From contig JBBRPR010000057.1 of the NCBI GenBank assembly GCA_038227875.1, positions 1-53,397 of the forward strand: 53,397 nucleotides of DNA, in the 5' to 3' direction. Both the position numbers and the translations under genes were made by a program. Origin of the DNA: Planctomycetota bacterium. Its GTDB lineage: Bacteria > Planctomycetota > SZUA-567 > H5-PLA8. Under the pieces are notes generated by a model. That model did not search any database, was not told where the DNA came from, and saw nothing but the letters and a program-made list of their open reading frames with translations. Below, piece after piece: positions 7,394-34,767 of this stretch; positions within the stretch are counted from its first letter, which is position 1, and every line of letters starts with the position of its first letter.

Positions 7394-7674
7394 AATTCAA
7401 AATTCAAAAACATGCGGAAGACCTTGGTGCCAGTCGCTGTCCGACCTTGTTGACCATGATCAACAAGGTCGGACAGCATATGGAAAATTTTCCATATGCT
7501 GGAAATTGACCAGCGGCCAAATTTGAACGAATACGAAGTCGACCAACCTTCAGGCAAATTTGCCTGACCACTTCTAATGGTGGAGTTGTAACTGTGGCAC
7601 ACCTGGGGACCAATTGGTCCCCGGGGAAAACAGTCCGCGAACCGTTTCGCAGCGCGCGTTTTGAATTTTGAATT
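7394..7674. repeat. Array of variable ~26-bp palindromes bracketed by a perfect 16-bp inverted repeat
   Basis: IR AATTCAAAATTCAAAA (7394-7409) / TTTTGAATTTTGAATT (7659-7674); palindromic units start at 7444, 7475, 7509, 7546 and 7601. Confidence 0.85.
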
Positions 7675-21851: not shown

Positions 21852-24689
21852 ATGACCCAGGCACTTCATCCCAAGACGCACGCTCATTCGCACGCCGGAC
21901 GCGACCGGCTCTCGGGCATTATCCACCGGCTCGGCGACACGCTCGGCCACGTAATCCAGGAGCAATCCGGCGCGCAGATTCTCTCGCTCGAAGAACGCGT
22001 CCGCCTGCTCTCCAAGGAACTCCGCGCCAGCAGCAAGCCGGAACTCTTCGCGGAAATGAAGTCGATCATGCAAGGCCTGTCGATCGAGCAGTCCGCCGGG
22101 CTGATCAAGTCGTTCAGCATGTTCTTTTCGCTCGTGAATCTCTCCGAGCAGCTTCAGCGCATCTGGGTGCTGCGCGACCGCGCGCTGGCCAAGCCCAACG
22201 ATCCACGTTCCGAATCGATCGCTTCGGCGATTTCCGAACTCAAAGCGCAGGGCGTCTCCGCCGCCGATCTCGAACGCTGGCTTGCCGACGCCGAAATTCT
22301 GCCGGTCTTCACCGCACACCCGACGGAAGCCCGCCGGCGCACGGTTCTCGATAAACTCCGCCGCCTCGCCGATGTGCTCGACACCGCGCACACCGGCGGA
22401 GGCCTGGCGTCCTCCAGTGCGCTGCCCAGCGCATCGGGCGCGGATTCCGTGGTGCGCGAGGAGATTACGGCGCTCTGGCAGAGCGACGATATCCGCATCG
22501 TCCGGCCGTCGGTGATCGACGAAGTGAAAAACGGCATCTACTATTTCAACCAGAGCATCTTCGAACTGGTTCCCGCGATCTATGAAGATCTGGAAGCCGC
22601 GCTCAGCGCGCACTATCCCGAACATGCGTGGGATGTGCCGTCGCTCTTGCGCTTCGGATCGTGGATGGGCGGCGACCGCGACGGCAATCCCAATGTCACG
22701 CCGCAGGTCACCGCCGAATCCGTGCGGTTGCTCTCTCAGGCCATCCGCCGCCGCTACTTTCACACCGTCGAAGACATCAGCCGCCGGTTGAGCATGTCGT
22801 CGCACCAGGTCGGCGCGTCGGACGAGTTGGTTACGTTTCTGCAAACCTACGGCGAACTTTTTCCGGAAGTCGCGCACCGCACGCTCGCGCGTTACCCGCG
22901 CGAACCCTACCGGCAGGCCTGCGCGTTCATCCGCGAAAAACTGCTCCGCTCCGTGGCACTCGCCGAGGACGCGCGCCAACTGGATTGGGACGGAACGCCG
23001 CTGCGCTCGCAGACGGCCTACATGCGCAGCTCCGAATTGCTCGCCGATCTGCGCATGCTCCAGAACAGTCTGCGCGCCAATAAGGGCAGCGCCGTTGCGG
23101 CCGGCGCGCTCAAGCGCTTCATCCGCCAGGTCGATGTCTTCGGGCTTCATCTGGCCACGCTCGACTGCCGCCAGCACAGCGACCGTCACCAGAACGCGCT
23201 GGCCGAAGTGCTCGAACGCGCCGGCGTCTGCAAAGACTTCGCGAGCTTATCCGAAGCGCAGCGCGTCGAGTTGCTCTCGGCGGAACTCACCAACCGCCGC
23301 CCGCTGATCCCCGCACGCTTGAGCTACACGCCGGAGACGGTCGAGACGATCGAAACGTTCCGGACCATCGCCGCGATTCTCGATCAACTCGCGCCGGAAT
23401 CGATTGACACGTACATCATCAGCATGACGCGCGGCGCCAGCGATATCCTCACGGCGCTGCTCTTCGCGCGTGAAGCCGGGCTCTTCCAGCCGGCGGCGGG
23501 AATCAGCCGCTTGAACATCGCGCCGCTCTTTGAAACCGGCGCGGACCTCGCCGGCGGCGCGGCGATTCTCGAAGCGTGCTTGAACGTTCCCGTCTACCGT
23601 GAGCACCTGAAGCTGCGCGGCAACGTCCAGGAAATCATGATCGGCTACTCCGACAGCAACAAGGACGTCGGGTTCCTCGCCGCGAACTGGGCGCTGTACA
23701 AGGCGCAGGCCGCGCTGCGCAACGTCGCGACGAAAGAACAGATCCGCCTGCGCCTGTTCCACGGCCGCGGCGGCGCAATCGGGCGCGGCGGTGGGCCGGC
23801 CAACAAGGCCATTCTCGCGCAGCCGCCGGGCAGCGTCGGCAACCAGATCAAGCTCACCGAACAGGGCGAAGTGATCGCCGACCGCTACGGTCTGCCCAAG
23901 ATCGCGCACCGGCATCTCGAGCAGGTGCTCCACGCCGTGCTGCTGGCCGGCCTGGAAAAGCGTCCCGACGCGCCGGAACAATGGGTCGGCGCGCTGGACA
24001 CGCTGGCTGAAAGTTCGCGCGGATACTACCGCAAGCTGGTCTACGAAAATCCGCATTTCATGGAGTACTTCCGCGCCGCGACGCCGATCAATGAAATCAG
24101 CCGCCTGAAAATCGGCAGCCGTCCGACGTCGCGCAAAAAGACCGACCGCATCGAAGACCTCCGCGCAATCCCGTGGGTCTTTTCGTGGATGCAGTCGCGC
24201 CACACGCTCCCCGGCTGGTACGGCCTGGGCTTCGCGCTCGAAGCCTTCGCCGGCGAAAATGGCGCTGCCAACGCGGAGCTGGAACTGCTGCAGGACATGT
24301 ACGCGCGCTGGCCGTTCTTCCGCACGCTGCTGGACAACGCGCAGATGATCCTGAGCAAAGCCGACATGCACATCGCCGAACGCTACGCCGAGCTCGTCGG
24401 CAACGCCGCCGCCTCGCGCGCTGTATTTTCGGAGATCCAGAACGAGTACCAGCGCAGCGCGCGCATGATCTGCCGCATCGCCAAAGTTGAGCGGTTACTC
24501 GACGACAGCCCTGTGTTGCAGCACTCCATCGACCGCCGCAACCCGTATGTGGACCCGCTGAGCTTCATTCAAATCGAGCTACTGCGCCGTCTGCGCAGCG
24601 ACCCGACGTGCAAAGACGCCGCGACGCTCGAAGAGCAGATTCTGCTCACGATCAGCGGAATCGCCGCGGGGCTGAAGAACACGGGTTGA
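21852..24689 (+). CDS. ppc: Phosphoenolpyruvate carboxylase
   Basis: VFTAHPTE, SWMGGDRDGNP, QEIMIGYSDSNKD, FHGRGG, LRAIPWVFSW, C-terminal LKNTG. Confidence 0.98.
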   Translation: MTQALHPKTHAHSHAGRDRLSGIIHRLGDTLGHVIQEQSGAQILSLEERVRLLSKELRASSKPELFAEMKSIMQGLSIEQSAGLIKSFSMFFSLVNLSEQLQRIWVLRDRALAKPNDPRSESIASAISELKAQGVSAADLERWLADAEILPVFTAHPTEARRRTVLDKLRRLADVLDTAHTGGGLASSSALPSASGADSVVREEITALWQSDDIRIVRPSVIDEVKNGIYYFNQSIFELVPAIYEDLEAALSAHYPEHAWDVPSLLRFGSWMGGDRDGNPNVTPQVTAESVRLLSQAIRRRYFHTVEDISRRLSMSSHQVGASDELVTFLQTYGELFPEVAHRTLARYPREPYRQACAFIREKLLRSVALAEDARQLDWDGTPLRSQTAYMRSSELLADLRMLQNSLRANKGSAVAAGALKRFIRQVDVFGLHLATLDCRQHSDRHQNALAEVLERAGVCKDFASLSEAQRVELLSAELTNRRPLIPARLSYTPETVETIETFRTIAAILDQLAPESIDTYIISMTRGASDILTALLFAREAGLFQPAAGISRLNIAPLFETGADLAGGAAILEACLNVPVYREHLKLRGNVQEIMIGYSDSNKDVGFLAANWALYKAQAALRNVATKEQIRLRLFHGRGGAIGRGGGPANKAILAQPPGSVGNQIKLTEQGEVIADRYGLPKIAHRHLEQVLHAVLLAGLEKRPDAPEQWVGALDTLAESSRGYYRKLVYENPHFMEYFRAATPINEISRLKIGSRPTSRKKTDRIEDLRAIPWVFSWMQSRHTLPGWYGLGFALEAFAGENGAANAELELLQDMYARWPFFRTLLDNAQMILSKADMHIAERYAELVGNAAASRAVFSEIQNEYQRSARMICRIAKVERLLDDSPVLQHSIDRRNPYVDPLSFIQIELLRRLRSDPTCKDAATLEEQILLTISGIAAGLKNTG

Positions 24690-24709
24690 CGGCAATCCAC
24701 TGCCTACCT

Positions 24710-24735
24710 ACCCCGTCGCGAATTCGCGACGGGGT
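24710..24735. repeat. Perfect 26-bp palindrome
   Basis: ACCCCGTCGCGAATTCGCGACGGGGT. Confidence 0.9.
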
Positions 24736-24835
24736 TAGAAACCACCAGTTAGCGAAAAGTAATCGACTTCGGACGGTAACAGTCCAGCGCCTGCATTTTT
24801 GAATTTTTAATTTTTGATTCCCCGCCGCGCGCACA

Positions 24836-24864
24836 TTGACAACGAATATTCCGCGGGGTTAATT
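24836..24864 (+). promoter_or_regulatory. Putative sigma-70 promoter for the uORF-tuf leader
   Basis: Perfect -35 TTGACA (24836-24841); AT-rich but non-consensus -10 (TTAATT) 17 nt downstream. Confidence 0.45.
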
Positions 24865-24902
24865 ACCTATCTAAGTAGGCATTCGTTTTTCGGAGCACCA
24901 CC

Positions 24903-25052
24903 ATGTTCGTCCGGCACGCAATCAATTGGGATTCGGTTTCCCGGGAGTTATCAGGGCAAGGCTCGACCTTGCCCGGTCGTGACTCCAGGGGATTGGGATC
25001 CACGACTCTTGCTGCCGGACCGGACACCGATCACGCACCTTCCGTGCGCTGA
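24903..25052 (+). CDS. Putative 49-aa leader peptide (uORF) MFVRHAINWDSVSRELSGQGSTLPGRDSRGLGSTTLAAGPDTDHAPSVR
   Basis: GGAG 8 nt before ATG 24903; TGA at 25050-25052; below the ORF-track length cut-off; followed 30 nt later by a terminator. Confidence 0.5.
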   Translation: MFVRHAINWDSVSRELSGQGSTLPGRDSRGLGSTTLAAGPDTDHAPSVR

Positions 25053-25080
25053 TTCCGCTTTCTCACCTGTCGTGAGTTGA

Positions 25081-25111
25081 AGCTCTCCGGTCCGCCGGAG
25101 AGTTTTTGTTT
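25081..25111 (+). terminator. Intrinsic terminator (attenuator) upstream of the EF-Tu paralog
   Basis: CTCTCCGG-TCCG-CCGGAGAG followed by TTTTTGTTT. Confidence 0.8.
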
Positions 25112-25161
25112 CGCCACGTGCTTTAAGACTCGCGAGGCGGACATCACGGCCAAAATGACAG

Positions 25162-25218
25162 ACCTTGTTGACCATGGTCAACAAGGTGTCCAACTTCCGG
25201 GCCACGTGGCCCGGAAGT
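25162..25218. repeat. Two tandem perfect 26-bp palindromes
   Basis: ACCTTGTTGACCATGGTCAACAAGGT (25162-25187) and ACTTCCGGGCCACGTGGCCCGGAAGT (25193-25218). Confidence 0.9.
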
Positions 25219-25302
25219 CGCCGCGCGGATCCTTCTCCCTCATTTCAAATCGAAACCATAGACGGCCGCGTGCGCACCACGCGCGCCGAAAGGAGAACTA
25301 TT

Positions 25303-26520
25303 GTGTCCACGCAACTGAACACCGTTTCCAAGCCCATCGTCAACGTCGGCACGATCGGGCACATCGACCACGGCAAGTCCTCGCTGACCACGGCCATCGT
25401 CGCCACGCTCGCGCCGCTGGGGCTGGCCAGGCCGCGCACGTACCAGCAGATCACCGCCGGTGGCGTGAAGCGCGACAAGCAGAAGGTCGTCACGGTCATC
25501 GTCTCGCACACCGAGTACGAATCGCGTGCGCGCAGCTACGCGCACGTCGATTGCCCGGGCCACGCCGATTACGTCCGGAACATGATCGTTGGCGCGGCGC
25601 AGATGGACGGCGGGATCCTCGTCGTCGCGGCCGATGAAGGCCCGATGCCGCAGACTCGCGAACACCTGTTGCTGGCCAAGCAGGTCGGCGTCCCGGCGAT
25701 GGTCGTCTTCCTCAACCGCTGCGACAAAGTGGCGGAAGTGGAACTGATCGACCTGGTCGAATCGGAAGTTCGCGCGATGCTCACGCGCTACGGCTATGAC
25801 GGCGTGAACGCGCCGGTCATCCGCGGCAGCGCGAAGGCGGCGATCGAAAATCCGACCGACGCGGCGGCGACGAAGCCGATCTGGGCGCTGCTCGATGCGC
25901 TCGATCGTTACATCCCGCTGCCGAGCCGGCCGATCGACCGGCCGTTCCTGATGCCGATCGAAGGCGTCTACTCCATCGAAGGGCGCGGCACGGTCGTGAC
26001 CGGGTTGATCGAACGCGGCCGCATCGCGCTGGGGGAGAAGCTGGAGATCGTCGGTCTCTCGCAGGACGCCGTGAGCACGACCTGCACGGGGATCGAACGC
26101 TTCAAGCGGCCGCAGCCCAGCGCCGAAGCGGGCGCGAACGTCGGGTTGCTGCTGCGCGGAGTGACGCGCGATCAGGTCCGGCGCGGGCAGGTGATCGCCG
26201 CGCCGGGAAGCGTCCAGCCGCGCTCGCATTTCCGCGCGGAAGTGTACGTGCTGACGAAGGACGAAGGCGGCCGGCACACGGCGTTCACGCCGAACTTCAA
26301 GCCGCAGTTCTTCTTCCGCACCGCGGGCGTCACGGGTGAAGTGCTGTCCGTGACGAACGAGAACTCGGAAGGCGGCGCGGTGATGCCCGGCGATCGCGTC
26401 ACGATGGAAGTGCAGCTGGAAGCCGACAAGCCCGTCGCCCTGTCCCCCGAACTCCGCTTCGCGATCCGCGAAGGCGGATGCACGGTCGGGCAGGGGGTTG
26501 TGGTGGAGGTGTTGGCGTAA
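25303..26520 (+). CDS. tuf: Divergent elongation factor Tu paralog
   Basis: [80 protein letters not shown] before GTG 25303; 405 aa. Confidence 0.93.
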
Positions 26521-26529
26521 GAGGAGTGA

Positions 26530-26564
26530 ACCCTCCCGCCCGCAAGGGCGGGAGGGTGTTTTTT
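26530..26564 (+). terminator. Intrinsic terminator of the tuf paralog
   Basis: ACCCTCCCGCCC-GCAA-GGGCGGGAGGGT followed by G and a T-tract. Confidence 0.9.
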
Positions 26565-27141
26565 ACCACGGCGAAAATGGATCAGAGTGCTTGGTCCAAA
26601 CAAAATCCCATAGCTCTCCCTTCGTTCTTAGTTCGCGTGCATCTGCGGGAAGTGGAATAACATTCAAGATCCTAATCTCGGTATTTTCAAAAGCGATCGT
26701 ATCCCAGCCATCCGCCACGAATCGTGGGTGTAAAATCAAACATTCCGCCTTTGGGAAAAGAGGAATTTCCCCAGGATTTCGAACTTTGTGCCACCAATCA
26801 AATGCGGTCTTGTGATCGAACGGATAGTTACTCAAATTCGCCAAGAAGGACGCAACGGACTTAATTTGAGGTATCGTGAGTTCGAGTCGAACAGCAAAAT
26901 GAAGTTCGCATCTATGATCGACACCTGACATTGCGCGATCACACATTCCCATGGTGCTGAATGAACACATTTCTACTTCTTCATCCGGCTTCCATACAAA
27001 CACGTCCACTCGATCAAGACCATCCGGCGCAATAGGTACGTTCGCATTTGATCGATCAAACTTTATCCCTTCGTCTGGTTCACCGAAGTTAGAAATGTGT
27101 TCATGATATACATGTCGAACAATTGCAGAGGGACCTGCCAT
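26563..27141 (-). CDS. Suppressor-of-fused (SUFU) domain protein, immunity-protein-like
   Basis: VDVFVWKP, FSTMGM, RCELHF, LANLSNYPF, ILNVIPL..RE; GAGGAG RBS before ATG 27141; visibly lower GC than its neighbours. Confidence 0.7.
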   Translation of the reverse strand: MAGPSAIVRHVYHEHISNFGEPDEGIKFDRSNANVPIAPDGLDRVDVFVWKPDEEVEMCSFSTMGMCDRAMSGVDHRCELHFAVRLELTIPQIKSVASFLANLSNYPFDHKTAFDWWHKVRNPGEIPLFPKAECLILHPRFVADGWDTIAFENTEIRILNVIPLPADARELRTKGELWDFVWTKHSDPFSPW

Positions 27142-27209
27142 TATCTTCTCCTCGATATCGGCGATTACGTATTCGCTCCACAAACATTGAATTCTGCATT
27201 CCTATCTGG

Positions 27210-27246
27210 TGTAGTCAATGCCGGGCGGCGAACCGCCTGGACTACA
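27210..27246. repeat. Compact or degenerate GTAG REP doublet
   Basis: TGTAGTC...CCGGGCGGCGAACCGCCTG GACTACA; same family as 21634-21835. Confidence 0.55.
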
Positions 27247-27294
27247 AAAGGCACGGCTTGCCGCTCAAGTCGAAAGTTCTTACACTCATCCAGT

Positions 27295-28002
27295 ATGGTT
27301 AAACGTCGAACGCTCCTCATTATTTCCATTTGTGTCGTGACGGGTTGCAACTCCAACCCTGGCGATTGCTCGTCCGACGCCATCCCGGTGGCGAAACAAC
27401 CGCCGCAGCTCGCTCCGCGCAGCACCGCGAAAGGAATCATGTTTGAACCCAAACCCATCTCCCCCGAACGCATCGCCGCCATCAAGACTGACCTTGAGTC
27501 CCGCCGGGAACGCGAGCAAGGCGTGCGCAACGAGATTACGGAACTGCTCCGGACGGGAACGCCGATAGCGAGCTTAAATGCAGCCACGTCGCCGGTCGTC
27601 AAACGGATGATCGAGATCGATAAAGAGAATGTCGCGGCGCTGAAAGGGATCCTCGCCGAATGCGGCTGGATCGACGCGACGCGCTTCGGAGCACGCGTGG
27701 CGCAGGCCGCGTTTCTCATCGTTCAGCACAGCAACGACGATGAACTTATGGGCGGCGCGCTACCGCACATTGAAGCGGACGCGAAGGCCAAGCGGATCAA
27801 CGGCGATCAGTACGCGCTGCTCTACGACCGGCTGACGCTCAGCCGCGGCGGCCTGCAGCGGTACGGCTCGCAGCTCAGCACGCGGGACAACGGCGAGATG
27901 TTCGCCGACAAGCTCGAAGATCCGGAGCACGTCGACGAGCGGCGGAAGGAATTGGGGATGCAGCCGTTGGCCAGTTACATCGGTGGGTTTGGAAAGCGGT
28001 AG
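27295..28002 (+). CDS. Lipoprotein with DUF6624-like domain
   Basis: Lipobox VVTG-C; IDKENVAALKGILAECGW, AAFLIVQHS, YALLYDRL, QRYGSQ, VDERRKELGMQPL. Confidence 0.75.
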   Translation: MVKRRTLLIISICVVTGCNSNPGDCSSDAIPVAKQPPQLAPRSTAKGIMFEPKPISPERIAAIKTDLESRREREQGVRNEITELLRTGTPIASLNAATSPVVKRMIEIDKENVAALKGILAECGWIDATRFGARVAQAAFLIVQHSNDDELMGGALPHIEADAKAKRINGDQYALLYDRLTLSRGGLQRYGSQLSTRDNGEMFADKLEDPEHVDERRKELGMQPLASYIGGFGKR

Positions 28003-31326: not shown

Positions 31327-34300
31327 TCAAAAGTCGCCGCTTTTTTCCGGGCTGCTTTCTTTGAGCGGCCAGGTGAGCGGCGCGGGATGGGCGAGCTTCG
31401 CTTTAAGCTCCTGCGCGCGCACGGCGGCGTTGAGGCGCAGCACCGCGTCGCGGCAGGCGGCGGCGCGGGTTTCATCGAGCAGTACGGCTTGCTTGCCGAA
31501 GAAGGCGAGGACCTCGCCGAGCTTATTCTTTTCACGCGCGATTCGTTCGAGCGCCACGATGGCCATGCGGCACTGGAGCGTCACGGAGTCGCCGGGCTTT
31601 CCCGCGTTCTGCTGCGGCGCGTTGACGAGGTTCATCAATACCGGCAGGCTGTCTTCGGACTGCTCCACGCAGGCCTGGACGGCGGCCTGACGCGTCTCGA
31701 CATCCGGGTCGGAAATGGCGCGCCCGACGACGGCGGGGTCCTTCGCGTCGATTTTCGCCGCGGCTGGAACGTTGGCGTAGAGATCCAACTGCAGCACCGC
31801 GCTGCCTTCCTTGGGTGAGATCGCCAGCTGATTTTCGTTGAAATTCCAGCTGACGGCGTGCGGTTTTTCCACCAGCCGCGGGTCGAGTTGGCACTGCCAG
31901 ACCAGCAGGCCGGAGCGGACGTCCCAGATGGAAATTTTGCCCGCATCCAACTGTGCCAATTGCGTGCGGCTGCGGCTGAACAGTTTCGTTCCCGTCGCGC
32001 CGAACTTGCGGATCACCTTGCCGGATTGGACATCGACCACGGCATCGTTGCCGGCGAGCAATTTTCCATCCAGGGTAAAGCGGGAGTTGATGCCGGGAAA
32101 ATCCATGTCGCGGATGAACGTGCCATCGCTGGCGCTGACCAGCGCCGACGTGGCGGAAGTGCCCGGGAACTCCGATTCGTACACGTACAACTGATCGCCA
32201 GCAGGATTCAAGTCCAACTCCTGAACGCTTTGGAGCGGATTTTTCGCGTGATTTTGAAACCAGAAGAGGCGCTTGCCCGTGGCCGGATCAAAAGCACCGG
32301 AGAGCCCGATCGGCGCCGCCTTGGGCTTGCCTGGCTCCGGAAGGCCGCCAAAGCGTTGCGAAAAATCGGCGAGGAAAGCTTTCGTTCCATCCGCCGTCCA
32401 AATGCAACGCGTCACATCCTGAGTCGGGCCGCTTGACGAAAGCGTGGGACCATGCAAGTCGCTTTGCGGTGTGCCGTGGCTCAGATCGAAAAAGCGCACG
32501 GTGCCATTGTATTCGTAACCCAGGAGCGCCCAGCGGTCGTCGTTGGATATCTGGATGAAACTTACCGCATTGCCATTCTGGCCCAGATGCCCGAGCAGTT
32601 TTCCGGTGTACGAATCCCACACTTCCGCCTTTCCATTTTCGGAACCGTGAGCAACGAGCATGCGCCCGTCGCTGAGGAGAAAATTCGCGCCGTAGGCATA
32701 CATCTCGGAGGAAAATTGCTGTGTCCGCTTGCCGGATTCATCGTACGCATAGGTCAGCGCGCCGTCGTACAAAAGCAGCCGTCCGTCGGGAGAATAATCC
32801 ATGCAGTAGGGCGGATTAACGTGAGCATCAGCGCCAGGCGCGAGCCGGCGTTCATTCTTCAAATCCATCAGGAGAAAGCTGGCACCGTTGCTGACAACGG
32901 CAAAGTACGTTCCCTGGGGACTACAGACCGCCTCATTTGCGAATTTGATTCCTGGTGCAGGAAGTGATGACAGCTCATGGCCGTCCTGCGCGGAGAATGT
33001 GCGAATGATTCCGTTTGCAAACGTCGTGACGGCCGCGCCGTCGGGGCTCAGCGAGCCGCACCCGGGAAAGCTGCGCACTTCCGTGCCGTCGGCCGCGCTC
33101 AGAATCCGCGCGGAAGATTTGCCCCACTCACCCATGCCGGAGACAAAAAGATGTTCGCCATCCGGCATCCATGCCAGGCCTTGCACATACGACGCCACCT
33201 TGGTCCATTCGTGCAGCAGCTTTTTTGTTTTCCAATCCCAGATCGAGAAACGTGGCGTGTTTTGATCTTTTTGTACATTCGTTCCGCTCCATCCATTTGC
33301 AATATCCACGCATGCCACACGCGATCCATCCGCGCTCACGCTGATGCACTGCAGACCATAATGGGTATGTTGATCCGTGCGCGAAACAGCGTCGAGGCCA
33401 TCAATGGCCAGGCCGGTATTCAAATCCACAGCCTTCAGCATGCCGCCGTTGGGCGTGCCACCCGGTGCCAGCGCAATCTGCTCGTCGGGAAACAGGGTCA
33501 TGAACCGGCCGCTCACGAATTTATTGAAAGGAAATTCCTTCTTCGACGGTGGAACCGGTAGTGCGCGCGGTTTCAATTCCCTGCGCCAATCCCATTTCAT
33601 AAACGAACACGATTCGAAACTCATATCGCCGCTGGGGAGAATCAGCAGCGTATCGTCCTTCAAAAAGCGAACGTCCCAGACTCCGTTCTGCAGCGTCGTG
33701 CGGACCCGTTCAGTGGCGGTGGCGATCTCCCAGATGGAGACGTATTTGTCGCCGGCCGACGCGATAAACTTTTCGTCGGCAGAGAAAGCGACGTGTTGCA
33801 CGTAGCCCGCCGGCTGAAACACCGCACCACCCAGCACGCGAACAAATCCGGGAATGGCAGCCGGCGACGTCTGCTCGTTGCCGGCAGTTTCCACGGGCTT
33901 CGCGCCGGGCTTCCGGGTTGCGTACGAGCGGTAGAACAGTCCGCCAAAGGTCCCGATCAACAGCACGCATGCCGTCAGCGCGGCCACGGCCTTCAGCTGC
34001 TTCACCGCCAGCATTTTCAGCGCGCCGTGAAACAGCTGCAGCGTGTGCGGCGAGACCACCTGCGCCGCCGCAGCCTCGCCAGCTTTTCCCAGCAGCGCCG
34101 CTTTGGCGGTCGCCGCCAGCAACGTTGCCGGCGCCGGTCCAGCCAGGGTCTGGCGCAGAGCTTCCTGCAGCAGGACCACGCTGCTGAACGCCACGCCGCG
34201 CTGCGCCAGCCGTGTGCGCAGCAGTTCGCGCGCGCGGTTCAAGCGCGCGGAAAATGTGCCGAGCTTCAGGCCCATCAGGCGCGCGCCTTCTTCTTCCGAT

Positions 34301-34767
34301 CGTCCTTCCAGATGATGGAGCACGAGCGGCTGCAGGTATTGCAGCGGCAGCGCGTTCAGCGCGTCGTCGAGCAGCGCTTTCAGCGCATCCTGCGACGGAA
34401 GATTGGGCGTGGTGCTTTCTTTCATGCGAGCGGCCTCCACTTCAAGACGGGCGCGAGCCCGGGAAGCGGAGCGAGCGCGCGTAGCCACATGCCACGCGAC
34501 CTGGTAAAGCCATGTGGAGACGGTGGCGCGCTGTTGCAGCGTGCCGGCTTTGCGCGCGAGCGTCAAAAAGACCGCCTGCGTCGCGTCCTCCGCCTCCTGC
34601 CGGTCGGCGAGAATGCGATTGCAGACGTTGAAGACCAGCGCCGCATGCCGCTGCAGCAGTTCTTCAAACGCCGCTTGATCGTTGGCCGCGTGAAAAGCAC
34701 GCAGCAGCTCGCCGTCGTTGCGTATCATGGCTTGCACAGTCTCCAGGACTCGTTCCGCTGCGTTCAT
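31327..34767 (-). CDS. ECF sigma factor fused to a TM helix, WD40 propellers and a C-terminal HEAT-like region
   Basis: DQAAFEELLQRH..AEDATQAVFLTLARKA..WLYQVA (region 2), LPLQYLQPLVLHHLEG..GTFSARLNRARELLR (region 4), TM ALTACVLLIGTFGGLF, many WD blades; alternative start 34728. Confidence 0.9.
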   Translation of the reverse strand: MNAAERVLETVQAMIRNDGELLRAFHAANDQAAFEELLQRHAALVFNVCNRILADRQEAEDATQAVFLTLARKAGTLQQRATVSTWLYQVAWHVATRARSASRARARLEVEAARMKESTTPNLPSQDALKALLDDALNALPLQYLQPLVLHHLEGRSEEEGARLMGLKLGTFSARLNRARELLRTRLAQRGVAFSSVVLLQEALRQTLAGPAPATLLAATAKAALLGKAGEAAAAQVVSPHTLQLFHGALKMLAVKQLKAVAALTACVLLIGTFGGLFYRSYATRKPGAKPVETAGNEQTSPAAIPGFVRVLGGAVFQPAGYVQHVAFSADEKFIASAGDKYVSIWEIATATERVRTTLQNGVWDVRFLKDDTLLILPSGDMSFESCSFMKWDWRRELKPRALPVPPSKKEFPFNKFVSGRFMTLFPDEQIALAPGGTPNGGMLKAVDLNTGLAIDGLDAVSRTDQHTHYGLQCISVSADGSRVACVDIANGWSGTNVQKDQNTPRFSIWDWKTKKLLHEWTKVASYVQGLAWMPDGEHLFVSGMGEWGKSSARILSAADGTEVRSFPGCGSLSPDGAAVTTFANGIIRTFSAQDGHELSSLPAPGIKFANEAVCSPQGTYFAVVSNGASFLLMDLKNERRLAPGADAHVNPPYCMDYSPDGRLLLYDGALTYAYDESGKRTQQFSSEMYAYGANFLLSDGRMLVAHGSENGKAEVWDSYTGKLLGHLGQNGNAVSFIQISNDDRWALLGYEYNGTVRFFDLSHGTPQSDLHGPTLSSSGPTQDVTRCIWTADGTKAFLADFSQRFGGLPEPGKPKAAPIGLSGAFDPATGKRLFWFQNHAKNPLQSVQELDLNPAGDQLYVYESEFPGTSATSALVSASDGTFIRDMDFPGINSRFTLDGKLLAGNDAVVDVQSGKVIRKFGATGTKLFSRSRTQLAQLDAGKISIWDVRSGLLVWQCQLDPRLVEKPHAVSWNFNENQLAISPKEGSAVLQLDLYANVPAAAKIDAKDPAVVGRAISDPDVETRQAAVQACVEQSEDSLPVLMNLVNAPQQNAGKPGDSVTLQCRMAIVALERIAREKNKLGEVLAFFGKQAVLLDETRAAACRDAVLRLNAAVRAQELKAKLAHPAPLTWPLKESSPEKSGDF

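Follow-up and report, generated by a model that had tools for sequence, protein, structure and literature searches.

The trp, his and leu attenuators of Escherichia coli work with four RNA segments. Segment 1 lies in the leader open reading frame and pairs with segment 2, segments 2 and 3 form the antiterminator, and segments 3 and 4 form the terminator. Without translation these systems are off, a stalled ribosome turns them on, and fast translation leaves them off. Here we describe a leader with a comparable layout before the gene of a divergent EF-Tu paralog in a bacterium of the Planctomycetota. EF-Tu is among the most abundant and most often attacked proteins of the bacterial cell. To our knowledge, divergent second copies of it are rare and poorly understood, and gene regulation in the Planctomycetota has been little studied. 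The DNA analysed is the whole contig JBBRPR010000057.1 of assembly GCA_038227875.1 (53,397 nucleotides, hereafter the window), and its genome is named G000. Two further loci, in the related genome G004 and on the metagenome contig L046, serve for comparison. Coordinates are window positions unless G004 or L046 is named. All features of the leader and the paralog described below lie on the + strand.

The locus resembles the trp, his and leu attenuators in its four-segment logic, a parallel also drawn in passages of 10.1101/2023.06.02.543512. Unlike them, it has no regulatory run of codons for one amino acid, its upstream open reading frame (uORF) is longer (49 codons), and the gene is not biosynthetic. 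Moreover, segment 1 here coincides with the first codons of the uORF, and a delay anywhere in a stretch of about 34 codons would count.

By analogy, the mechanistically closest known system appears to be the whiB7 leader of mycobacteria and other Actinobacteria. According to passages of 10.1101/2023.06.02.543512, it senses general translation stress by uORF-mediated attenuation. Efficient translation of the uORF leads to a rho-independent terminator, and inefficient translation leads to an antiterminator and read-through. According to the same passages, the promoter is distal, the uORF has a few dozen codons and varies in length and sequence between species, and a rho-independent terminator precedes the gene. 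Counterparts of these traits are predicted for the EF-Tu leader. On the other hand, the two leaders have no sequence relation. The target is an elongation factor paralog instead of a transcription factor, and the phylum is Planctomycetota. The whiB7 uORF consists of 25-40% alanine, whereas in our own reading the EF-Tu uORF is not enriched in one amino acid. It also contains a near-invariant hairpin, and the EF-Tu leader is known from sequence and computation alone.

Two other systems share part of this organization. The toiL uORF, upstream of topAI-yjhQ in E. coli, is proposed in PMC12121999 as a single uORF that senses many kinds of translation stress, where stalling at different positions remodels the leader RNA. 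There, the remodelling frees a ribosome-binding site and prevents Rho-dependent termination. In contrast, the window has an intrinsic terminator, and the Shine-Dalgarno sequence of the paralog is not predicted to be sequestered. The tet(M) leader of Tn916 (Ptet / srn0030) has long been described as a case of transcription attenuation (passages of 10.1101/2021.03.24.436905). As in the window, the gene of a translational GTPase stands there behind a putative leader peptide and a rho-independent terminator. However, the sequences are unrelated, and tet(M) encodes a protection protein of the EF-G family.

Concerning the regulated gene, the parallel is EF-Tu3 of Actinobacteria (tuf3, 'actEFTu2'). 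This additional divergent EF-Tu is called starvation-induced in passages of PMC4342817. According to two titles cited there, it is inessential, resists three classes of EF-Tu inhibitors and seems to be under positive stringent control. Judged from these passages, EF-Tu3 is the best-known stress-linked spare EF-Tu, and they describe no leader-peptide control of tuf3. The planctomycete paralogs differ from it in phylum. They branch from planctomycete-type EF-Tu, and orthology to EF-Tu3 is not supported. In the literature searched, a limited check that is no proof of absence, no uORF or attenuator was described before an EF-Tu paralog. We would therefore be dealing with a known kind of control, before a gene not so far known to be under such control.

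A putative ribosome-dependent attenuator

We read the element as a ribosome-dependent (leader-peptide) transcription attenuator, with a probability of about 60%. Most likely, the leader turns the paralog on when ribosomes run slowly. The window holds a complete and statistically unusual attenuator architecture.

The putative promoter (24836-24864) consists of the -35 element TTGACA (24836-24841), a 17-nt spacer, and the -10-like element TTAATT (24859-24864). The same layout is present in all three leaders, where the pattern TTGAC[AG]-17 nt-TT[AT]A[TG]T is conserved (G000, G004 and L046). This pattern has one match in the 53-kb window against 0.01 expected, a count that is circular for its own site because the motif was derived there. 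An AT-rich block with three T5 runs, read directly at 24794-24819, precedes the -35 element and is possibly an UP-like element. The uORF (P0002) occupies 24903-25052, with an ATG start and 49 codons plus TGA. Its Shine-Dalgarno sequence GGAG (24892-24895) lies 7 nt before the ATG. The intrinsic terminator follows at 25083-25111. It has an 8-bp GC-rich stem, a UCCG loop and a U5-G-U3 run, seen both in the sequence and in folding. The hairpin is CTCTCCGG-TCCG-CCGGAGAG at 25083-25102, continued by TTTTTGTTT to 25111. Its energy is -13.5 kcal/mol alone and -17.1 kcal/mol with flanks (ViennaRNA). From the terminator to the start codon of the paralog there are 190 nt. The original prediction, made from this DNA, had listed the TTGACA, a ribosome-binding site, the 49-codon uORF, the terminator and tuf, and direct reading finds every one of them in place. 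It had also pointed to an exact reverse complement between the end of the uORF and the terminator. This is equally present: CGGACCGGA (25016-25024) is the exact reverse complement of TCCGGTCCG (25086-25094).

The proposed switch uses four segments. Segment 1 (24904-24921), the 5' strand of the anti-antiterminator, corresponds to uORF codons 1-6, and in the minimum-energy fold its partner is 25009-25026. This partner is segment 2, the antiterminator strand, with its core at 25016-25024; it can pair with segment 1 or with the 5' arm of the terminator. Between both segments lies a conserved stem-loop within the uORF (24938-24992), with an apical 8-bp hairpin (24954-24974), a 30-nt core (24954-24983) and flanking helices. 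Two small hairpins are predicted between the antiterminator strands (25029-25075), and the first contains the uORF stop codon (25050-25052).

In this scheme, positions 24836-25111 would be the promoter and four-segment leader of the paralog gene. Transcription would start a few bases past the -10 element. With no ribosome, or with the ribosome at the end of the uORF, segment 1 would pair with segment 2, giving a long hairpin with the conserved stem-loop at its tip. The terminator (25083-25102 plus the U-run) would then form, and RNA polymerase would stop. If the leading ribosome stands between codon 1 and about codon 34 when the terminator is made, segment 1 would be occupied. Segment 2 would pair with the 5' arm of the terminator, and the polymerase would read into the paralog. 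The leader would thus indicate when translation of the uORF is slow or lags behind transcription. Its signal would be a reduced elongation capacity, as caused by EF-Tu shortage or inhibition, by starvation, or by ribosome-targeting drugs.

Folding is consistent with this scheme in the window. The + strand of 24860-25115 folds with -115.7 kcal/mol (z = -7.0), and 0 of 200 shuffles were as good; the - strand reaches z = -2.9. In the minimum-energy fold, the pairing of 24904-24921 with 25009-25026 closes a 124-nt hairpin of -70.7 kcal/mol. We used two ribosome models. In one of them a 27-nt footprint was masked, and in the other only the RNA 3' of the ribosome was allowed to fold. The terminator has a probability of 0.87 in the free leader, with the 1:2 hairpin formed. 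With the footprint on P-site codons 1-8, this value is 0.02 or less. In the 3'-only model, minimum-energy folds contain the antiterminator as long as the P-site codon is 1-34, and the terminator takes over from codon 35. The antiterminator joins 25016-25024 to 25086-25094 and extends to about 15 pairs. When the two states are forced on the whole leader, the terminator state has -106.2 kcal/mol and the antiterminator state -98.0 kcal/mol. Once segment 1 is removed, the order is reversed, with -33.9 and -41.6 kcal/mol, respectively, and the antiterminator is 7.7 kcal/mol better. These models suggest that termination would occur at 25083-25111.

We defined a full switch as a terminator probability of at least 0.8 in the free leader and at most 0.05 in both ribosome models. 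When the upstream 208 nt were shuffled and the terminator was kept, none of 200 sequences gave a full switch. The behaviour in a single ribosome model only was reproduced by 1/200 and 2/200.

The original prediction had proposed alternative structures, with read-through when ribosomes stall. In G000 the models agree with both: the antiterminator is favoured for codons 1-34 in the 3'-only model and beats the terminator once segment 1 is taken away. They do not carry over to the homologs, as described below. It had also stated that normal translation masks the antiterminator and so stops transcription. In the models, masking is limited to P-site codons of about 35-45, and a ribosome at the stop codon leaves 25016-25024 uncovered. 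The off state would come mainly from the pairing of segments 1 and 2, and segment 1 is absent from the original prediction.

If the leader gates the second EF-Tu as proposed, the paralog would be a stress or back-up factor, and the inducer of read-through would be a handle on the condition that needs it. A translation factor would then join the short list of genes under general translation-stress uORFs. It would also be a case of leader-peptide attenuation in the Planctomycetota.

Homologous leaders, the uORF and the RNA core

Homologous leaders are found directly upstream of a divergent EF-Tu paralog at all three loci: the window, G004 and L046. A DNA similarity search of 41 relatives gave a single 30-nt match, exactly upstream of the G004 paralog. 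The core pattern with up to 3 mismatches was positive in 2 of the 62 genomes of the class, and in G000 itself it matched once. A pattern back-translated from the peptide was positive in 2 of 401 genomes of the phylum. The exact core gave 7 stretches in the species-genome collection, one of them real, and 8 stretches in metagenome contigs, where the real one is L046. So, these scans of the 62 class genomes, the 401 phylum genomes and the species-genome collection showed no leader beyond G000 and G004. The flanking genes differ at the three loci. Since the leader stands before the paralog in each case, the two seem to travel together.

The uORF has 49 codons in G000, 44 in L046 and 36 in G004. 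A Shine-Dalgarno sequence and an ATG are present in the three leaders, with spacings of 7-9 nt (GAGGAG at 9 nt in L046, AAGGAGG at 8 nt in G004). The original prediction had named the uORF upstream of orthologous tuf paralogs as a check, and it is present at these two loci. The ancestral Shine-Dalgarno site of G000 now reads AAGTAGG, a decayed form, and a replacement GGAG lies at the right distance within a G000-specific insertion. The distance from ATG to core is 51, 57 and 57 nt. In spite of G000/L046 indels of -10, +5 and -1 nt, the core is read in the frame GQGxTLPGRD in the three leaders. The first six codons differ between G000 and L046 at two sites, both synonymous third positions. Among the three loci, 3 of the 30 core positions differ: two are synonymous third positions and one is a first position that changes the residue to S, T or A. 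By our own count, this makes 4 synonymous third positions among the 5 variable sites of these two conserved blocks. When the three peptides were searched as a profile, 5 candidates came up, and two of them are gene-caller predictions on other assemblies (P0003 and P0004). P0003 is identical to the G004 uORF. Six of the 36 residues of P0004 are not those of P0003, and all six are outside residues 8-33, the motif region. The motif is invariant in the four peptides, yet it is encoded by base-paired, nucleotide-conserved RNA. From these comparisons, the uORF is very probably functional and part of a conserved, paralog-specific leader, and we infer that it is translated.

RNAalifold kept three helices in the three leaders: the apical 8-bp helix GGGCARGG/CCUUGCCC, CGGGA:UCGYG, and UYCC:GGRA. 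These helices explain why nucleotides are conserved regardless of the frame. The apical hairpin (-13.8 kcal/mol) shows one pair changed from A:U to G:U. For L046 helix 1:2 is predicted too, and there U1452:A1556 replaces C24911:G25018 as a single compensatory change. The core is, by sequence comparison, constrained as RNA and possibly as peptide too; both constraints are inseparable in the present data. A near-invariant hairpin inside a uORF offers a clean test case for RNA versus peptide constraints.

An alternative pairing is possible at 24964-24980. There, and in the cores of L046 and L010, a second partner is available to CGACC, which makes up the loop and 3' arm of the apical hairpin: the conserved GGUCG just downstream. 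The minimum-energy fold of G004 uses this pairing, which may represent a second, local conformational switch. A 5' hairpin at 24866-24879 with apparent covariation was dropped, as it is probably partly upstream of the transcription start.

A further idea assigns a double role to the core. In it, the 8-bp hairpin and GQGxTLPGRD would together meter elongation speed, that is, the supply of EF-Tu ternary complex. Failure of the main EF-Tu would be sensed in this way and answered by an EF-Tu of NRxD type that escapes the inhibitor, toxin or modification. We regard this as speculative and rather unlikely. If true, elongation rate and the supply of elongation factor would be linked in a closed feedback loop, a case that we did not meet in the literature searched.

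Sequencing runs also cover the locus. Run X1 (DNA) contains contigs identical to it and probably represents the source or a near strain, and public runs place the locus in a sediment sample. In run X2, a contig of a related strain, about 95% alike, covers 24746-24996 (promoter and first half of the uORF) with 8 substitutions. This variant has a 3-nt deletion at 24884-24887, in the T-run just before the uORF Shine-Dalgarno sequence, and a 1-nt deletion at 24804, in the AT-rich block. The RNA run X7 gave two 151-nt contigs of a relative (6 and 4 differences) over 25238-25540 only, and contig cover in this metatranscriptome carries no information on transcription, termination, read-through or a downstream promoter.

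Difficulties and competing explanations

Several results weigh against the attenuator. The same modelling gave no clear switch in L046 or G004, and a ribosome-dependent antiterminator was obtained for G000 only. L046 has 4 terminator-like sites against 0.5 expected. However, its best candidate (L046 1637-1651 plus U6) has a probability of 0.002 in the free leader for a transcript ending at 1651, and it responds irregularly to the ribosome position. The strong hairpin at L046 1661-1683 is constitutive. The G004 leader presents no hairpin with a U-run, and its last GC hairpin forms in every model. This leaves three possibilities: divergence of the downstream half, an equilibrium model that is too crude, or a conserved function other than intrinsic termination in some of the leaders. 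The ribosome-mask models approximate a kinetic process by an equilibrium. Covariation is thin as well. The comparison covers only three DNA homologs, and 3 of the 20 pairs in the RNAalifold structure show changes on both sides, so the covariation that the original prediction had named as a check has thin support.

Other points concern the uORF and the signals. GC content at third codon positions is 0.63 in the uORF and 0.62-0.88 in 8 long open reading frames of the window, with 7 of the 8 at 0.72-0.88. At this low end, the uORF would have many rare codons, and its codon usage is unlike that of most window genes. Other frames are also open across the leader, which is common in GC-rich DNA, so openness is uninformative. 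The stretch TGGGATT...CCCGGGAG is conserved at the nucleotide level, but its frame in G000 differs from that in L046 and G004. Being kept across a frame change, it suggests that the apparent peptide conservation is partly RNA conservation. Passages of 10.1101/2021.03.24.436905 report no toeprint for the tet(M) leader peptide and no change of the minimum inhibitory concentration after start-codon replacement. A predicted leader peptide may thus go unused. Finally, a sigma-70 scan did not report the promoter at 24836-24864, which it would have missed because TTAATT is far from the -10 consensus. A simple terminator scan did not report the hairpin at 25083-25102. Here we suspect that greedy stem extension through A-T and G-T pairs swallowed the T-run.

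Three other explanations have to be weighed. The nearest one keeps the attenuator but replaces its sensor. GQGxTLPGRD, perhaps with the hairpin that encodes it, would be a sequence-specific arrest peptide. It would stall the ribosome under a particular condition or with a particular molecule, and the opened leader would bring antitermination or another downstream effect. The core keeps its frame in the three leaders although the indels between them do not come in multiples of three, which fits this idea. So do the kinds of substitution in the core (synonymous third positions and one S/T/A site) and the position of all six P0004/P0003 differences outside the residues that hold the motif. In addition, a ribosome at codons 22-27 leaves the antiterminator free in the 3'-only model. 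Nevertheless, the conserved residues all coincide with conserved base-paired nucleotides, so that peptide and RNA selection are inseparable, and the residues right before the motif change frame in G000. The frame could equally serve the distance to the stop codon, since the other frames stop at 25078, beside the terminator, or at 24980. GQGxTLPGRD is not known to resemble any arrest motif, a point on which no search was made. On balance we find an arrest peptide unlikely. In another view, the leader is a structured cis-regulatory RNA that binds a protein or ligand; for instance, the paralog could regulate itself in this way, or a different translation factor could bind. Sensing would then fall to the stem-loop, with an incidental or secondary uORF. 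The strongest conservation is indeed at the nucleotide level, with three differences in the 30-nt core while the proteins are 60% identical. The CGGGA:UCGYG flanks are kept in the three leaders, CCCGGGAG is conserved across the frame change, and the + strand fold is unusually stable for its composition (z = -7.0). The lack of attenuator logic in G004 and L046 would also be accounted for. On the other hand, this view leaves unexplained the conserved reading frame and the Shine-Dalgarno sequence with ATG at 7-9 nt, including the replacement in G000. No Rfam family matches it, and the single occurrence of the core pattern in G000 speaks against a regulon-wide protein site. A structured RNA with an incidental uORF is, in our judgement, improbable.

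The third explanation separates the element from the gene. Here, the promoter and terminator would belong to a small RNA gene of their own that happens to neighbour the paralog, and the promoter of the paralog would be downstream of 25111. The unit of about 240 nt from promoter to terminator, its very stable fold, and the 190 nt between terminator and start codon would be expected for such a gene. But the element occurs only and always before the paralog, at three loci with different neighbours, and in G004 the leader is not separated from the gene by a terminator with a U-run. A repeat-like insert, which the other two leaders lack, fills much of the 190 nt in G000. The conserved promoter pattern has no second match downstream. 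We consider a separate small RNA gene very unlikely. Known RNA families were searched as well. Rfam 15 gave no match at E <= 1 over 24000-26000 and none at the gathering score over the whole window, and ARAGORN found no transfer RNA or transfer-messenger RNA. With both searches blank, 6S RNA, signal recognition particle RNA, transfer-messenger RNA, T-box and riboswitch families were dropped.

The EF-Tu paralog and its surroundings

The gene behind the putative attenuator encodes a divergent EF-Tu paralog of 405 aa (P0001, 25303-26520), with a GTG start and the Pfam domains GTP_EFTU, D2 and D3. Its Shine-Dalgarno sequence AAGGAG (25290-25295) follows a GC hairpin common to G004, GCGCGCC-GAAAGGAG, which is invariant between G000 and G004. 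It shares 58-59% identity with the canonical EF-Tu, whose tuf gene lies on contig C15 of the same genome. With TIGR00485, P0001 scores 526.6 bits, borderline against the cutoff of 522.4, and the canonical copy scores 625.2. The L046 ortholog falls under this cutoff with 512.9 bits. P0001 keeps GHIDHGKS and DCPGH; in the G4 motif it has NRCD instead of NKxD (residue 139). This change of the guanine-specificity motif to NRxD is present in 7 of 7 paralogs of the G000 type. The G004 paralog still has the lysine, as do 14 canonical copies. The 7 paralogs and the 14 canonical rows are fixed differently at 36 alignment columns, and the G004 paralog has 12 of these 36.

In a large protein collection, six protein clusters are 80-87% identical to the paralog (P0006-P0011; P0009 is the L046 protein). 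The paralogs of the three loci are 60-80% identical to each other. A tree of 17 rows splits the three paralogs with known DNA from the 14 canonical EF-Tu by a 99/98 branch, and this grouping may be partly artefactual because the paralog branches are long. Before the tree, L036 (duplicate of L010), L034 (truncated) and L035 (fragment) were removed. An unusual switch-I region is common to the paralog and the canonical EF-Tu of the lineage, which suggests that the paralog arose from planctomycete-type EF-Tu.

Such second copies are scarce. At E <= 1e-100, EF-Tu is matched in 16 of the 17 genomes of the family, and a second divergent copy is present in G000 and G004 only. In the class, 37 of the 62 genomes have an EF-Tu match (the count includes the unpublished genome G017), and the only other doubles are in five genomes of the genus g18. 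These genomes (G025, G027, G029, G030 and G038) are complete, and each has two EF-Tu hits of equal or near-equal score. Judged by these scores, they are ordinary tufA/tufB-type duplicates and no divergent paralogs.

Upstream of the leader in the window lies the gene of a phosphoenolpyruvate carboxylase (21852-24689, Pfam PEPcase). At L046, the neighbour is transcribed divergently from the leader and encodes a GT1-family glycosyltransferase (L046 66-1343, - strand; EryCIII-like_C, UDPGT and Glyco_transf_28). At G004, the flanking open reading frames have no assignment, and a class II aminoacyl-tRNA synthetase lies farther downstream. The GT1 family includes antibiotic-modifying enzymes, and the L046 neighbour would hint, if weakly, at a context of antibiotics. 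In the window, the paralog is directly followed by a SUFU-domain protein (26563-27183, - strand) and a DUF6624 protein (27097-28002, + strand), a context not found at the G004 or L046 loci.

Between the terminator and the gene there are two perfect 26-bp palindromes, at 25162-25187 and 25193-25218, without strand. They make up the repeat-like insert mentioned above and are specific to the G000 leader, being missing from those of G004 and L046. The first palindrome (core TTGACCATGGTCAA with extended arms) recurs at no fewer than 5 other intergenic sites of the genome, with unrelated flanks: at 7443-7469 of the window and at C26:65851-65891, C2:21157-21191, C12:34213-34235 and C1:174446-174508 on G000 contigs. 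These copies are often beside other palindromes, and on C1 both window palindromes stand in tandem with 76% identity. The palindrome at 25162-25187 was considered as an operator or second promoter and set aside, because some of the other copies precede genes and some follow gene ends. From their distribution we tentatively read the palindromes as a repeat-like insert outside the switch; a repetitive extragenic palindromic (REP)-like repeat, a bidirectional terminator or an operator could each account for them. Farther along the window, 31327-34767 (- strand) encodes a protein of 1146 aa, with sigma-70 regions 2 and 4 at its N-terminus and a long WD40 beta-propeller region.

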